Shown here: positions 2,302 to 29,254 of the stretch, piece by piece | Layout: each line of letters starts with the position of its first letter | Numbering within the stretch: the stretch's first letter is position 1 | Origin: Desulfocapsa sulfexigens DSM 10523 | Lineage (GTDB): Bacteria; Desulfobacterota; Desulfobulbia; Desulfobulbales; Desulfocapsaceae | Reading direction: 5' to 3' | Assembly (NCBI RefSeq): GCF_000341395.1 | Contig: NC_020304.1 | Coordinates: 2,640,001 to 2,672,000 of the forward strand | Length of the DNA stretch: 32,000 nt | Notes under the pieces: generated by a model | What the model was told of the DNA's origin: nothing | Seen by the model: only the letters and a program-made list of their open reading frames with translations | Databases searched by the model: none | Program-made: the position numbers and the translations under genes

Positions 2302-3555
2302 TTAGTTCACGTCGGAGTGTTGCAGCAAATCTACAATATGTCGACAGGTTTTTCTACTCCCTCCTTGCTTTAATTGGATATATTTATTTGCCTTCTGCTG
2401 GATTGTTGCCTTATCTTCTGGATTTCTAAGTGTTTCTTCCAGTAATTTCAGTACCTCTTCTTTGTTGCTGCCTTTTTTGACAAGACCGCTCTCAAAGACT
2501 TCGTTTCCTGCCCAGAGGAAGTTTGAGATTGAGGGCCCGGTTACTGGAGTGACTCCGTTCATAAATGCTTCGATAAAGTTTTGTCCGCCAAGTGGAGCAA
2601 GGCTGCCACCAATAAAGGCGGCATCGGCACGCTGATAGGCGTTGAGTAGTTCACCAAAAATATCCCAGATAAGTACTGAAGCTACGGCATTCAGGGAGGA
2701 GGCGCTTTTCAACGCACAGCTGATATGACTTTCTGTGAGCAGTGTTTTCCAGTTACTGACCCTAGCCAGATGACGGGGAAAAAGGTCTATATGGAGATCC
2801 GGAAAGCGTTTCAGCAGTTCTGTTATCAGATAAAAAACTTCACTTTCTTCCTCTTTTCGGATTGAGGCGAGAATGAGGGTCCTGTCTTTTGTCACGGCCT
2901 TTTTAGAAATTGTACATGTTTTTATCTGGTCAAATTTAATATTTGAAACGTAATAGCTCCTCTTTTGCTGGAAGAGATCCTGGAGCCGTTTTTTGTTTTC
3001 TTCTGAGTTGGCCAGGATAATATCCGGTGCGAGCCTCTTCCAGAGGAAGGCGGTCTTTTTATATCCCTTATAACTTTTTTCCGTCATTCGACCATTGACG
3101 ATAATCATCTTTTTCTTCTGTCGTTTTATCTCGGCCATAAGGGCTGGCCAAATTTCCAGTTCAATAAGGACCAAAAGCTTCGGGTCGGCGATGCGGATGG
3201 CTTTTTTTACCAGGGTCGGGTTGTCGAACACCATATAGGCAATACTGACGGCATGCCTCTGTTCTGCAGCCAGATCTTTTTCAAGGATATTTTTACCCTG
3301 GGAGGTATTCGTTGTGATAAGGATTTTAAGTTTCAGGTCATCTTCAAAATTTTTCAGGAGCTGTCTTGCTATATAGGCCTCACCAACGGATGCTGCGTGC
3401 ATCCATATGTCAACTTTTGAGAAGTTAACTTTTTTGAGAGTACGTTCTTCCGCACCCTCTTTGAGTCGTGGAGAACGAAGGAGAAAAGGCGTGGCACAGA
3501 CCCACAGGAGTTGATAGAAGAAAAACAAGGTCTTGAGAAAAAAAGATTCTTTCAT
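2302..3555 (-). CDS. waaA: 3-deoxy-D-manno-octulosonic acid (KDO) transferase
   Basis: 417-aa ORF with an N-terminal membrane anchor, the IWMHAASVGEA motif characteristic of KdtA/WaaA, and a glycosyltransferase C-terminal half. Neighbours are kdsB and msbA. Confidence 0.88.
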   Translation of the reverse strand: MKESFFLKTLFFFYQLLWVCATPFLLRSPRLKEGAEERTLKKVNFSKVDIWMHAASVGEAYIARQLLKNFEDDLKLKILITTNTSQGKNILEKDLAAEQRHAVSIAYMVFDNPTLVKKAIRIADPKLLVLIELEIWPALMAEIKRQKKKMIIVNGRMTEKSYKGYKKTAFLWKRLAPDIILANSEENKKRLQDLFQQKRSYYVSNIKFDQIKTCTISKKAVTKDRTLILASIRKEEESEVFYLITELLKRFPDLHIDLFPRHLARVSNWKTLLTESHISCALKSASSLNAVASVLIWDIFGELLNAYQRADAAFIGGSLAPLGGQNFIEAFMNGVTPVTGPSISNFLWAGNEVFESGLVKKGSNKEEVLKLLEETLRNPEDKATIQQKANKYIQLKQGGSRKTCRHIVDLLQHSDVN

Positions 3556-9206: not shown

Positions 9207-9337
9207 CAGAGAGTGGAGAAGGCAGGTATTATCCAGATTGACGCTTTTCCTTGAGTCCGTCTGAAAAAGGATCACAGTGGGTGTGGTACAGGATAAGAAA
9301 GCCCCTGTTTTTAGTAACAGCTACTGCCTTAATGATT

Positions 9338-9502
9338 CCTGATTACCATCGAAACTCAGCTTTGCAACCCGGAGTTGTTCCGTGTCGATTATATGGGACG
9401 CCATAAACCCATCCCTGGAGGCTCTGCTGCGGCCGTCCAGGCCGCAGATGCCCATATAATCAACACGAACTAACTCCTCCTCAGACGTTAGTGGTAATCA
9501 GG
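9338..9502. mobile_element. MITE-like non-autonomous element, copy A (165 bp)
   Basis: Perfect 11-bp terminal inverted repeats CCTGATTACCA (9338-9348) and TGGTAATCAGG (9492-9502). A perfect 8-bp direct repeat TAATGATT flanks it (9330-9337 and 9503-9510). The interior is roughly 90% identical (aligned by eye) to the reverse complement of 22053-22237. It has no credible ORF. Confidence 0.75.
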
Positions 9503-9617
9503 TAATGATTTGTTGATGGATGTAATTCAAGGCCTCCAGTTGCATGCGTTCTTTTCAGCTGATCAATGTCACCAAGCGGAAAGAACCCATACTTCGGGAA
9601 TAAACAATAAAAAAAGG

Positions 9618-16452: not shown

Positions 16453-16502
16453 CGACTCCAGGAATCGAAGTCCAGTATTCTATCCAGCTGAACCATGAGT
16501 GT
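16453..16502 (-). pseudogene. tRNA-Arg-like 5' fragment (acceptor 5' strand through variable loop; no T-arm)
   Basis: The minus-strand ACACTCATGGTTCAGCTGGATAGAATACTGGACTTCGATTCCTGGAGTCG matches about 40 of the first 50 nt of the intact tRNA-Arg(UCG) at 29005-29081. Similarity stops where the T-arm should begin, and the anticodon stem has mismatches. Confidence 0.55.
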
Positions 16503-16592
16503 TGTTGTGTGGTGCTTCAGATAATAAATATCTCTTATGTCCTGTTGGGAGTGCTCTTTTTTTTGTGGTGGCACAAATAACGCGGGAAACGC

Positions 16593-20291: not shown

Positions 20292-22049
20292 ATGTTTGTA
20301 CAGAAGAGATCATCAAGACTGGCCCGTTTTTTTCCCTTCCTGAGCTGGCTTAAGGGATATAGCTCTCAAGAGCTGCGAAGCGACTCTCTGGCAGGACTGA
20401 CAGTTGCTGTGGTGTTGATACCACAGTCAATGGCCTATGCCATGCTTGCAGGCATGCCTCCTGTTTATGGGCTGTATGCGGCCGCTGTAACTCCTGTCAT
20501 AGGAGCGCTATGGGGCAGTCTGCGCCAACTTGCAACCGGGCCTATTGCAATCATGAGTCTTCTGGTTCTCACAACCCTTACTCCCCTCGCTGAACCCGGA
20601 TCTGCGGATTATATTTCTCTGGCTTTTACCCTCTCTTTCATGGTGGGATGCCTCTATCTTTTTCTCGGTACCCTTCGCATGGGATTGATCATGTCCTTTA
20701 TCTCCCATTCTTCCGTCAAAGGTTTTACTGCAGCCGCTGCCCTTATCATCATCTCCACCCAGCTTCCGCATCTCTTTGGTATCTCTGTTGGAAAACATGA
20801 GTACATCCTGCCCATGCTGGTTAATATTGTCCGGGAACTTCCCAGTTTGAATCCTTATACCTGTGTTATGGGGATCGCGGCCCTGATTCTCATCTCTTTC
20901 ATCAAGCATGTTAACAGAAATTTGCCGGCAGGATTGATTGCCCTGGTGATAGGTACTGTGATGGTCATCGTGTTTGATCTTGATCAGAAGGGAATCGCAG
21001 TTATAGGTGCAATACCGGTTGGTCTGCCCAGCTTTAATCTTCCCCTGGTCAGTTTTGAGATGCTCAGCAAACTTGCAGGACCGACAATGGTGATTGCCCT
21101 GGTGAGCTTTGCGGAGACCTATTCAGTAGGGAAGGCGATATCAAGTCAGACCAAACAGAAGGTGAATGTCAATCAGGAACTGATTGGTCAGGGGTTGGCC
21201 AATTGTATCGGATCTTTCTTCTATTGCCCCCCGGTAAGCGGCTCCTTTTCCCGTTCCGCCATTAATTTTGCCGTTGGTGCAAAAACTGGCGTCTCCAGCA
21301 TCTTATCAAGCATTATTGTTGTTCTGTCTCTGCTTTTCCTGACCCAGCTTTTCACCAGTATTCCTAAGGCGGTACTCGCCGCCCTGGTCATTAATGCCGT
21401 ACTTCTCCTCTTTAATCCAAAAGAGGTCTTTGCCCTTTTAAAGAAAAACCGGCATGACGGTATTGTAGCTGTTACCGTATTTATTATGGGACTGGTCATC
21501 AAGCCTGATTATGCACTGCTTCTCGGGGTCATGATGTCGCTTATCTTTTTCCTCTGGAAAACCATGCACCCGGTTGTTGTCAGGATAACCAAGGATCCTG
21601 AATTGAACATGTTTGTTGATGGTGATCTGATGGATAAACCTGACTGCCCGCAGATCCTGCAGTTACGGATAGACAGTGAAATCTATTTCGGGAATGCCCA
21701 GTTTCTGGTGGAACTCATTAGCGAGCGCTTGGATGCATTGGTAGCGCCCATTAAATTTTTGATTCTTGATTTTCAGGCAGTAAGCTTTGTCGATCTGACA
21801 GGAATTGATGAACTCAGACTGCTCCTGGAAGAACTTGACACGAGAGGGGTCCGGCCTGTCTTTATTAATATCAACCCGCCCGTTCAGAAGGTATTTGTTT
21901 CTTCAGGATTGTCTGCAGATATTGATGCAGAAATGATTTTTGATGGAAAAGGTACGGCAACCAGAAAAATTTTCCCTATTCTTGATCATGATTACTGCCG
22001 TGAGACCTGTTCGATTGCTCTTTTTAATGAGTGCGAAACCGTGAAATAA
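20292..22049 (+). CDS. SulP-family anion (sulfate/bicarbonate) transporter with a C-terminal STAS domain
   Basis: The N-terminus FPFLSWLKGYSSQELRSDSLAGLTVAVVLIPQSMAYAMLAGMPPVYGLY is the SulP signature region, and the C-terminal ~130 aa are STAS-like. The start is ambiguous (TTG 20250, ATG 20262, ATG 20292). I chose 20292 from the typical N-terminal length. Confidence 0.88.
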   Translation: MFVQKRSSRLARFFPFLSWLKGYSSQELRSDSLAGLTVAVVLIPQSMAYAMLAGMPPVYGLYAAAVTPVIGALWGSLRQLATGPIAIMSLLVLTTLTPLAEPGSADYISLAFTLSFMVGCLYLFLGTLRMGLIMSFISHSSVKGFTAAAALIIISTQLPHLFGISVGKHEYILPMLVNIVRELPSLNPYTCVMGIAALILISFIKHVNRNLPAGLIALVIGTVMVIVFDLDQKGIAVIGAIPVGLPSFNLPLVSFEMLSKLAGPTMVIALVSFAETYSVGKAISSQTKQKVNVNQELIGQGLANCIGSFFYCPPVSGSFSRSAINFAVGAKTGVSSILSSIIVVLSLLFLTQLFTSIPKAVLAALVINAVLLLFNPKEVFALLKKNRHDGIVAVTVFIMGLVIKPDYALLLGVMMSLIFFLWKTMHPVVVRITKDPELNMFVDGDLMDKPDCPQILQLRIDSEIYFGNAQFLVELISERLDALVAPIKFLILDFQAVSFVDLTGIDELRLLLEELDTRGVRPVFININPPVQKVFVSSGLSADIDAEMIFDGKGTATRKIFPILDHDYCRETCSIALFNECETVK

Positions 22050-22052
22050 AAA

Positions 22053-22237
22053 CATGATTACTACAAATCCTCAGCCTACCCGCCTGAGGAGGATTTCTTT
22101 TCGTGTTGATTATATGGGCATCTGCGGCCTGGACGGCCGCAGTAGCAGTAGAGCCCCCAGGGATGGGTTTATGGCGTCCCATATAATCGACACGGAACAA
22201 CTTTGGGTTACAAAGCTGATTTTGGATGGTAATCAGG
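22053..22237. mobile_element. MITE-like non-autonomous element, copy B (185 bp), inverted relative to copy A
   Basis: Terminal repeats are CATGATTACTA (22053-22063, matching the consensus at 9 of 11 positions) and TGGTAATCAGG (22227-22237). A perfect 8-bp direct repeat AATAAAAA flanks it (22045-22052 and 22238-22245). The left copy contains the sulP stop codon TAA (22047-22049). Confidence 0.75.
22069..22101 (+). terminator. Terminator-like hairpin carried inside MITE copy B, just downstream of sulP
   Basis: CCTCAG-CCTACCCGC-CTGAGG (22069-22089) is followed by AGGATTTCTTTTC. This segment is partly deleted in copy A. Confidence 0.4.
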
Positions 22238-22356
22238 AATAAAAAAGAACAACAAACAGCGATGAGCGGGGGGAGAAGAGCCGCCAGGACTGGCATTTCG
22301 GGAGCAGATCATAATGATGAAGCTTTTTTTCTTTGTTGAAGTGCATGTGAAACTGT

Positions 22357-27498: not shown

Positions 27499-27563
27499 TT
27501 CTTAACAGTGAGCAGTGCAACTACTCCTGATGTTTGTTACTAGAAAACTACCTTAAGGTTATT

Positions 27564-28877
27564 ATGCAGGATATACAGCAGGTTATGGTGTTTGTGGAAC
27601 GTCTTGTGGCCCAGGATATCGGCAAGGCTGTAAAAATCCTTGAAGAAACACCTAGAAAAGATGCGGCCGCAATTTTGGCAAACATGTCACCTGAAAGTGT
27701 GGCGCAGATAATCCGCAGACTACAGACCAGTTTTTCTGCAACCCTCCTTGAAGAGCGGAATGTGGAGTCAGCGGCATCCATCCTCACCTCCCTTCCACCT
27801 AATCAGGCGGCGTCTATCGTCATGCATCTTTCTACACAATCCCGGGATCGCCTGCTGCCCCATATCTCCGGTACACTTTTAGAAAAAATAAGGGATTTGT
27901 ATACCTATCCGGAAGGGAGCGTGGGGAGGTATATGTCAACGGATTATCTTACTTTCCTGAAACATGAAGAAGCTGGAGATGTGATAGAAAAAATAAGGGC
28001 GCTTGCCAGTAAAAAGACCTTTCCAGCATCGTATGCCTATGTTGTCGATGATGATGGGATTCTGCAGGGTGTGTTGAATATGCGTGATCTCATGCTTGCA
28101 AGACCAGAGCAGCCTCTTAGTTCTTTTATGATTGCAAATGTTTACACACTTCATTGTTTTCTCGACAGGAGTGAGGCGACCAGGGAGATGGCTAAGCGCA
28201 AATATTTTGCAGCACCTATAGTAGATAATGAAAACAGAATTCTTGGGGTTATCAAAGCTGAAAATTTACTAACCGGCCTCAAGGAGGATGTTACTGCCGA
28301 CCTCTTGAAAATGGTTGGTGCTGGCGGCGATGAGAAAACATTCTCCCCGATCAGTTTTGCCTTGAAAAAGAGACTGCTCTGGCTAAATGTAAACCTGGTC
28401 ACTGCTTTTCTTGCAGCGGCTGTGGTTGCAATGTTTGAGGGTATTATTGCGAAGATAACAATTCTGGCGATATTCCTGCCGGTTATTGCCGGGCAGGGTG
28501 GAAATGCCGGGGCACAATCTCTTGCTGTTGTGATGCGTGGGCTTGTGATGCGTGAAATTCCGGCAAAGAGAGTACGGGAACTCATATGGAAAGAAACACG
28601 TTTGGGAGCAATTAATGGCGTTGCTATTGGAATAGTGACGGCCCTTATTGCCTGGCTATGGCATGGTAACCCATGGTTAGGGCTCGTTATCGGCCTTGGT
28701 ATGATTTTAAATCTGGCCATTGCGGGCCTTGCAGGGAGTTCAATTCCTATCTTGATGAAAAAGATGGGTATTGATCCAGCACAAAGCTCTAGTATCATAT
28801 TGACTACTGTAACCGACGTTATGGGTTTTCTGGCTTTTCTTGGACTTGCTGTGATTTTTCAAGATTATCTTATCTAA
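27564..28877 (+). CDS. mgtE: Magnesium transporter MgtE (MgtE_N, CBS pair, TM domain)
   Basis: The order is an MgtE_N region (AAAILANMSPESVAQIIRRL), a CBS pair, then a TM domain with GQGGNAGAQS. I chose the ATG at 27564, which has AAGG 6 nt upstream. The track ORF begins at TTG 27534. Confidence 0.9.
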   Translation: MQDIQQVMVFVERLVAQDIGKAVKILEETPRKDAAAILANMSPESVAQIIRRLQTSFSATLLEERNVESAASILTSLPPNQAASIVMHLSTQSRDRLLPHISGTLLEKIRDLYTYPEGSVGRYMSTDYLTFLKHEEAGDVIEKIRALASKKTFPASYAYVVDDDGILQGVLNMRDLMLARPEQPLSSFMIANVYTLHCFLDRSEATREMAKRKYFAAPIVDNENRILGVIKAENLLTGLKEDVTADLLKMVGAGGDEKTFSPISFALKKRLLWLNVNLVTAFLAAAVVAMFEGIIAKITILAIFLPVIAGQGGNAGAQSLAVVMRGLVMREIPAKRVRELIWKETRLGAINGVAIGIVTALIAWLWHGNPWLGLVIGLGMILNLAIAGLAGSSIPILMKKMGIDPAQSSSIILTTVTDVMGFLAFLGLAVIFQDYLI

Positions 28878-28958
28878 GAACAGATAAGAATAGGATGTAA
28901 ACCAGACTCGTACGGTTGATGAACTGAGCTGATGGCTGTGGTGGTTTGTAATGAGAAT

Positions 28959-28994
28959 CTCCTTTGGGGCGCATTTCTTTGTGTCCCAAAGGAG
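28959..28994. terminator. 10-bp stem hairpin between mgtE and the tRNA-Arg 3' end (possible bidirectional terminator)
   Basis: CTCCTTTGGG (28959-28968) and CCCAAAGGAG (28985-28994) flank a 16-nt loop. Neither strand has a clear U-tract. Confidence 0.3.
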
Positions 28995-29004
28995 AATCGC
29001 TGTA

Positions 29005-29081
29005 TGGTACACCCAGTAGGATTCGAACCTACGACTCCCGGATTCGAAGTCCGGTGCTCTATCCAGCTGAGCTATGGGTGC
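29005..29081 (-). tRNA. tRNA-Arg (anticodon UCG), CCA encoded
   Basis: The reverse complement is GCACCCA TA GCTC AGCTGGATA GAGC A CCGGA CTTCGAA TCCGG GAGTC GTAGG TTCGAAT CCTAC TGGGTGT ACCA. This is a 77-nt cloverleaf with the anticodon loop CU-UCG-AA and a G1-U72 wobble. Confidence 0.93.
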
Positions 29082-29254
29082 TTTTTATATGCTGCTTCAG
29101 ACAATATATATTTATTCCACTACAAGTGTCGGCATGTATCTGCTGTTACCGATGGTTGTGAGCGAAAAAAAACTGCAAGCATCCTAGGCAACTTGAACAG
29201 ATGATATGCAGTTATTGGGAAACAAATAATCTACTCTGCTAATCTTGTCAATTC

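Follow-up and report, generated by a model that had tools for sequence, protein, structure and literature searches.

Two non-coding repeats in the stretch of Desulfocapsa sulfexigens DSM 10523 DNA analysed here (32,000 nucleotides, positions 2,640,001 to 2,672,000 of contig NC_020304.1; hereafter the window, numbered from its first letter) are best read as copies of a MITE that uses an IS1595-family transposase, both being old insertions that have become fixed. We assign this reading a probability of about 90%. The MITE family is previously undescribed, but it is an ordinary kind of bacterial mobile DNA.

Read directly from the window sequence, copy A spans 9338-9502 (165 bp) and copy B, oppositely oriented, spans 22053-22237 (185 bp). 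An earlier note, made from the letters of the window, had described perfect 11-bp inverted ends and an 8-bp duplication for copy A and a different flanking 8-mer for copy B, and we found all of these in place: copy A begins with CCTGATTACCA (9338-9348) and ends with its exact reverse complement TGGTAATCAGG (9492-9502), and the two copies are bracketed by TAATGATT and AATAAAAA, respectively. Their features, from left to right in the window, are these:

9330 to 9337, no strand: left target-site duplication of copy A, TAATGATT, identical to 9503-9510 (8/8 match, recomputed)
9338 to 9360, plus strand: left terminal inverted repeat of copy A, CCTGATTACCATCGAAACTCAGC, 23 bp, from the sequence and the family alignment
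9371 to 9477, plus strand: core of copy A, a long hairpin with imperfect pairing, its arms at 9371-9397 and 9451-9477
9480 to 9502, minus strand: right terminal inverted repeat of copy A, intact only in its outer ~15 nt, from the alignments
9503 to 9510, no strand: right target-site duplication of copy A, TAATGATT, from the sequence
22045 to 22052, no strand: target-site duplication of copy B, AATAAAAA, overlapping the SulP TAA, from the sequence
22053 to 22237, minus strand: copy B, whole element, 185 bp, from the sequence, the alignments and the fold
22238 to 22245, no strand: target-site duplication of copy B, AATAAAAA, from the sequence

The arms of the copy A core, located by an inverted-repeat search, are 27 nt long and 85% complementary, and the hairpin contains a conserved apical segment, GGGACGCCATAAACCCATCCCTGG (9395-9418), and an inner GC hairpin (9427-9447). 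The inner TCCTCAGC part of the right terminal inverted repeat, the inner third of that end, has been removed by a 13-bp deletion relative to the family consensus, leaving a gap in the alignments where other copies carry GGGTAGGCTGAGGA. The inverted ends of copy B are imperfect: at 22053 the sequence is CATGATTACTA, which differs from the CCTGATTACCA of copy A at 2 of the outer 11 nt, and the other end has an intact outer 11 nt (22227-22237) and 1 mismatch in its inner part. Copy B also has a 6-bp internal insertion relative to the consensus, and its hairpin arms lie at 22099-22118 and 22178-22197. JGI contig L017 has both the insertion and the duplication; it matches the window at 96% identity along 12 kb, and copy B sits in it at the same site. 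Aligned with their flanks, copies A and B show 87% mean column identity and identical runs of 45 and 41 nt; the alignment is full-length, the differences being the 13-bp deletion in A, the 6-bp insertion in B and scattered substitutions. A search for the terminal 11-mer at no more than one mismatch gave 3 matches in the window, against 0.55 expected, and all three are at element ends.

Both copies sit between convergent genes, as had been proposed: copy A between an APH-type kinase and a histidine kinase (AGF78918.1 and WP_015404606.1, the identical protein), and copy B between SulP and an ABC-2 permease, with its left duplication overlapping the SulP stop codon TAA (22047-22049). The view that the element is non-coding also held, as only short ORFs are present inside it and none matched Pfam; a 90-aa ORF across copy B likewise had no Pfam match. 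A coding role for one shared short ORF (MGRHKPIPGG...) was considered and rejected, given that the region is invariant at the nucleotide level, that substitutions are mostly non-synonymous and that one Desulfopila copy is frameshifted.

The element belongs to a dispersed family. Scanning JGI metagenome contigs with a pattern drawn from the hairpin core returned 36 loci, mostly from two metagenomes; because a match had to have 22 core bases exactly, their invariance in the JGI copies is uninformative. The further copies that the earlier note had suggested looking for do exist: BLAST identified ~30 homologous copies in two JGI metagenomes, 85-98% identical to copy A or B, with a family consensus of 178 bp. 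When 21 distinct full-length copies were aligned with their flanks, column conservation was ~90-100% within the element and fell to the background level precisely at its CCTGATTACC and GGTAATCAGG termini. In 20 distinct full-length copies, the flanking 8-mers match at 8/8 positions in 9, at 7/8 in 3 and at 6/8 in 3; they differ from copy to copy and are 80% A+T. The remaining copies of the 20 have visibly degraded ends, and in L020 and L023 the duplication is recognisable if a small terminal deletion is allowed. Since the pattern of inverted ends and duplication recurs at ~20 other sites with different 8-mers, it lies far beyond chance, and the reading of the element as a non-autonomous MITE gains from the additional copies, from the reproduced pattern and from homology that stops at the termini. 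Short-read assemblies of the organism are interrupted within the element, as a multicopy dispersed repeat would lead one to expect.

These flanks also bear on whether the element might instead be a structural intergenic repeat, REP/BIME-like or otherwise, that a Y1 (RAYT) transposase or recombination has spread and whose flanking 8-mers agree by coincidence. The element is, as REP sequences are, an intergenic GC-rich imperfect palindrome. However, REP/RAYT and IS200/IS605-type elements have neither target duplications nor terminal inverted repeats, whereas the MITE has both; the flanking 8-mers match at 6-8 of 8 positions in 15 of the 20 copies and differ between sites; and the ends are those of DDE-type IS1595 elements that produce the same 8-bp duplication. 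We consider such an origin very improbable.

Outside the JGI contigs, the hairpin-core pattern had 0 matches in a genome collection that does not contain the source genome and 0 in viral contigs, where the apical motif also had 0, and a BLAST search of the consensus against plasmids gave no match. The D. sulfexigens genome paper makes no mention of transposons or repeats of the MITE kind. An extra CCTGATTACCA match in L010/L013 was considered as the end of a full IS and rejected as a chance match inside an acyltransferase gene.

Several observations concern individual copies and their flanks. L008 carries at 3173-3262 a truncated copy of which only the right half is left, its end degraded. The right flank of copy A (9503-9518) shares TAATGATT and the next 8 nt (TGYTGATG) with L012 (315-330), L007 (222-237) and L019 (1897-1912); these four copies are mutually closest relatives, at 97-98% identity, yet occupy non-orthologous loci, and the neighbouring gene at the L012, L007 and L019 loci resembles acetolactate decarboxylase. 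The common 16-mer is not a general repeat and could be a target hot spot or the result of transduction of a short flank. In addition, L007 (1-414) and L012 (1-600) have more than 250 bp of right flank beside the MITE in common and different left flanks, a pattern that suggests either that MITE copies have recombined or that the metagenome assembly is chimeric at the repeat.

The assignment to IS1595 comes from the ends. Both ends of the MITE carry a 23-bp inverted repeat, CCTGATTACCA nnnAnnC TCAGC, that is, CCTGATTACCAnnnAnnCTCAGC. The corresponding end pattern, CCTGATTACCANNNANNCTCAGC, occurs at at least 120 loci in the genome collection, where by our own estimate its 18 specified bases would be expected ~17 times by chance. 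Many of the matches listed are inverted pairs. Pairs whose ends lie 1018-1063 bp from each other have a 315-aa ORF between them and a perfect 8-bp duplication on the outside. These are the full-length IS with the same ends that the earlier note had proposed to search for. Among the matches listed, full-length IS with perfect duplications are L049, L064, L075, L102, L112, L119, L125, L127, L158 and L162, from a Desulfocapsa MAG (L049), several Rhodocyclaceae, Thiorhodococcus, Photorhabdus, Aeromonadaceae and one viral contig; L091, from a second Desulfocapsa MAG, has the same IS structure with matches at only 4/8 flanking positions. The L064 ORF matched Pfam DDE_Tnp_IS1595 (1.8e-35) and Zn_ribbon_IS1595 (6.5e-14) as well as NCBIfam NF033547, 'IS1595 family transposase' (2.9e-58).

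A protein-led route, independent of the DNA end pattern, arrived at the same family. When the Desulfocapsa-MAG transposase was compared with annotated plasmids by tblastn, the matches were IS1595-like ISPma1, ISEc70, ISAeca5 and ISKpn3 family transposases. On E. coli plasmid NZ_CP015139.1, the gene is annotated as 'IS1595-like element ISEc70 family transposase', and the IS, 1018 bp long, has CCTGATTACCA at both termini and ATCCCTTT on either flank. The left terminal inverted repeat of copy A is identical at 21/23 positions to one (the right) end of the ISEc70-family IS and fits the IS1595-type end pattern. In the ISfinder family table, the IS1595 subgroup is listed with 'CcTGATT' ends and a direct repeat of 8 bp. 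An 8-bp target duplication is a stated property of the IS1595 family (PMC8101967). The duplication of the MITE matches this property, and its ends match those of IS that encode DDE_Tnp_IS1595.

Duplications of 8 bp are also made by ISL3, IS256 and IS6 elements, and by length alone the duplication cannot separate these families from IS1595. Every full-length element with these ends among the matches listed has an IS1595-type transposase, no transposase of another family lies between matching ends among those matches, and the annotated ISEc70-family (IS1595) element has exactly the same outer 11 nt, all of which leaves mobilisation by one of the other three families with hardly any credibility. 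The earlier note had held that the family could not be assigned from the window; this stands for the window itself, and with the outside data the family is IS1595, one of the four candidates then listed. On comparison of the end sequences and of the encoded proteins, we regard the family question as resolved in favour of IS1595.

The same ends recur on other short elements. Among the matches listed, many elements of 82-370 bp in Desulfobulbales MAGs combine these ends and perfect 8-bp duplications with cores of unrelated sequence, and at least 27 pairs of ends in such related families have 8/8 duplications. We noted at least a dozen other short families with the same 23-bp ends, perfect 8-bp duplications and unrelated hairpin cores, mostly in Desulfobulbales MAGs and one on a viral contig. 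Elements of this kind include the following:

Other same-ended short elements: L053, L089, L100, L146 and L156 (153 bp); L074, L101, L130 and L157 (163 bp)
Further same-ended short elements: L124, L096, L120, L135, L058, L116, L141, L143 and L160

Because the same ends recur with unrelated cores, one conserved IS end pair has given many MITE families. Beyond the ~23-bp ends, we found no sequence common to the MITE and the IS copies; the MITE is therefore not a simple internal-deletion derivative of any IS found.

A transposase with matching ends is absent from the window, as had been noted before: tblastn with two IS1595 transposases found none there, and related contigs totalling 272 kb yielded no IS1595 transposase either. 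D. sulfexigens DSM 10523 is absent among the best 120 relatives of the Desulfocapsa-MAG transposase, and the two of these that were traced are both from other metagenomes. By analogy with the DDE class, from which we infer the catalytic mechanism of the IS1595 family, a transposase supplied in trans would bind both ends and excise or copy the element. The element would then be inserted at a target whose strands are cut 8 bp apart, and repair of this stagger would leave the duplication. Desulfocapsa and its relatives may have acquired their intergenic copies by this route.

We searched for occupied and empty sites through orthologues of SulP, the histidine kinase and the radical-SAM gene. The close strains are occupied (L166, L167 and L168 at the copy A site and L017 at the copy B site), the distant loci are rearranged, and no clean empty site was found by this route. 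Since all close strains are occupied and both window copies have end damage, the copies appear old and fixed; given the damaged ends, they are probably immobile relics. L163, whose SulP orthologue is 86% identical, has no MITE; it is not a clean empty site, because a LOG-family gene sits between SulP and the ABC-2 permease. This LOG-family (Lysine_decarbox) gene occupies 3183-4147 of L163, where the window has only copy B and a 119-bp spacer (22238-22356), and it is either lost in the lineage of the window or gained in that of L163. L173, a relative of the L011 locus, also has no MITE, but ~600 bp of neighbouring sequence is absent too: comparison of L011 (6000-7000) with L173 (3980-4220) places the L011 MITE within a ~790-bp segment missing from L173, and that segment also holds an apparent C-terminal fragment of a response-regulator receiver gene.

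Inside its ends the element is a long imperfect palindrome, a trait of many bacterial MITEs. It folds into a rod-like hairpin on either strand, the consensus reaching ~-96 kcal/mol as RNA, and as DNA the folds are much more stable than those of shuffled sequence (copy A, -36.7 kcal/mol, z = -6.5; copy B, -40.5 kcal/mol, z = -5.75). In a Desulfopila MAG (S6_bin.40), elements of 181-182 bp share the ends and have a core homologous to that of the MITE, and across 25 sequences 96.5% of cells pair in the proposed structure. Pairs changed on both sides number 13, whereas shuffles gave 4.7 ± 1.6 (0/500) and slid controls gave 1-3. Of the 24 pairs of the main stem, 12 are changed on both sides between D. 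sulfexigens-type and Desulfopila copies, all of them compensated, and the stem of a second Desulfopila copy differs again and is likewise fully complementary. A 30-nt apical segment, TGGGACGCCATAAACCCATCCCTGGGGGCT, is identical in 3/4 Desulfopila copies, and wobble-type mismatches in the core favour one strand (~12 sites versus 3).

The compensated changes, the different but fully complementary stem of the second Desulfopila copy, the unchanged apical segment, the strand bias and the stability of the folds would all fit an exapted functional module, with a selected core that acts as an RNA hairpin for transcript stability or termination or as a protein-binding site and with mobility as its vehicle. 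Such a module, consisting of the compensated long stem and the 30-nt apical cap, would have been spread by transposition across Desulfobulbales intergenic regions as a functional RNA or protein-binding element, for example as a transcript-end stabiliser or an insulator between neighbouring genes. Other results point away from it. With Rfam 15 at gathering scores, only tRNA passes in the window and no family covers the element, and even at E <= 10 the region 9300-9540 gives two chance-level matches only. Neither window copy contains intrinsic-terminator or promoter motifs. Copies lie in convergent, divergent and tandem gene contexts alike, and 7/8 copies in tandem contexts are oriented opposite to the strand favoured by the G.U asymmetry. 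Only two or three lineages supply the compensated changes, which could be produced by template-switch correction of quasipalindromes without selection, and the two small apical helices show no covariation. Finally, mobility does not require this core, given that other MITE families sharing the ends have cores of unrelated sequence. On balance we consider the functional module unlikely and a selected function of the core a minority possibility, and we retain the reading of the two repeats as ordinary MITE copies; the covarying core with its invariant apical sequence offers a modest lead to a function at the RNA or DNA level.

Two further observations were made in the window. A 54-nt fragment at 16453-16506 is 81% identical to the 5' two-thirds of tRNA-Arg(TCG) (29005-29081, minus strand; matching part 29032-29085). 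It lies 12.6 kb from the tRNA on the same strand, with copy B in between, is not called by ARAGORN or Rfam, and may be what remains of a tRNA or the scar of an old attachment site. The region 27538-29005, which includes an MgtE-type magnesium transporter gene (27534-28877) adjoining tRNA-Arg, is replaced by ~85 bp in the 96%-identical L017, a strain-level indel.

The family described here provides a clean, well-bounded MITE family for Desulfocapsa and the Desulfobulbales and places it in IS1595, for which few MITEs are documented. It accounts for the breaks in short-read assemblies at these sites, and it shows that one conserved IS end pair supports many unrelated MITE families across sulfur-cycling Desulfobulbales. 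In annotation, both loci should be marked as repeat or mobile-element features rather than as genes or regulatory RNAs.

Among known systems, Correia elements of Neisseria, ERIC/IRU of enterobacteria and RUP of Streptococcus are small, intergenic, multicopy rod-like hairpins with terminal inverted repeats and a transposase acting in trans. The MITE described here resembles them in its rod-like hairpin, as shown by the folds. These elements have other ends and other duplication lengths, Correia elements duplicating TA. Roles at the RNA level, as RNase III or RNase E sites or as promoters, have been shown experimentally for them, whereas any such role of the present MITE would be hypothetical. 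The IS1595 elements with CCTGATTACC ends (ISEc70-, ISPma1-, ISAeca5- and ISKpn3-like, ~1.02-1.06 kb) have the same outer 11 nt as the MITE, resemble it over ~23 bp (CCTGATTACCA...TCAGC) and, like it, are flanked by 8-bp target duplications. IS1595 elements with MITE-like ends are also present in Desulfocapsa/Desulfobulbaceae MAGs (L049, L057 and L091). The two differ in that the MITE is non-coding and 165-185 bp long, in contrast to ~1 kb for the IS, and in having no sequence in common beyond the ends. Further systems of this kind are the same-ended MITE families of 153 bp in Desulfocapsa sp. GMC10, of 163 bp in Desulfobulbaceae HyVt-474 and S145_10, and of 181 bp in Desulfopila sp. S6_bin.40; the last has the ends, the core architecture and the apical 30 nt in common with the MITE, whereas the cores of the other families are unrelated. 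A MITE tied to ISHwa6, also of the IS1595 family, has been described in several copies in Haloquadratum walsbyi (165 bp, IR 25, DR 8; PMC3852290, Table 4, Kamoun et al. 2013). Its host is an archaeon, whereas the elements here are in Desulfobulbales bacteria, and the two are presumably unrelated in sequence; the H. walsbyi MITE is likewise non-autonomous and linked to IS1595, and copy A has the same length of 165 bp.
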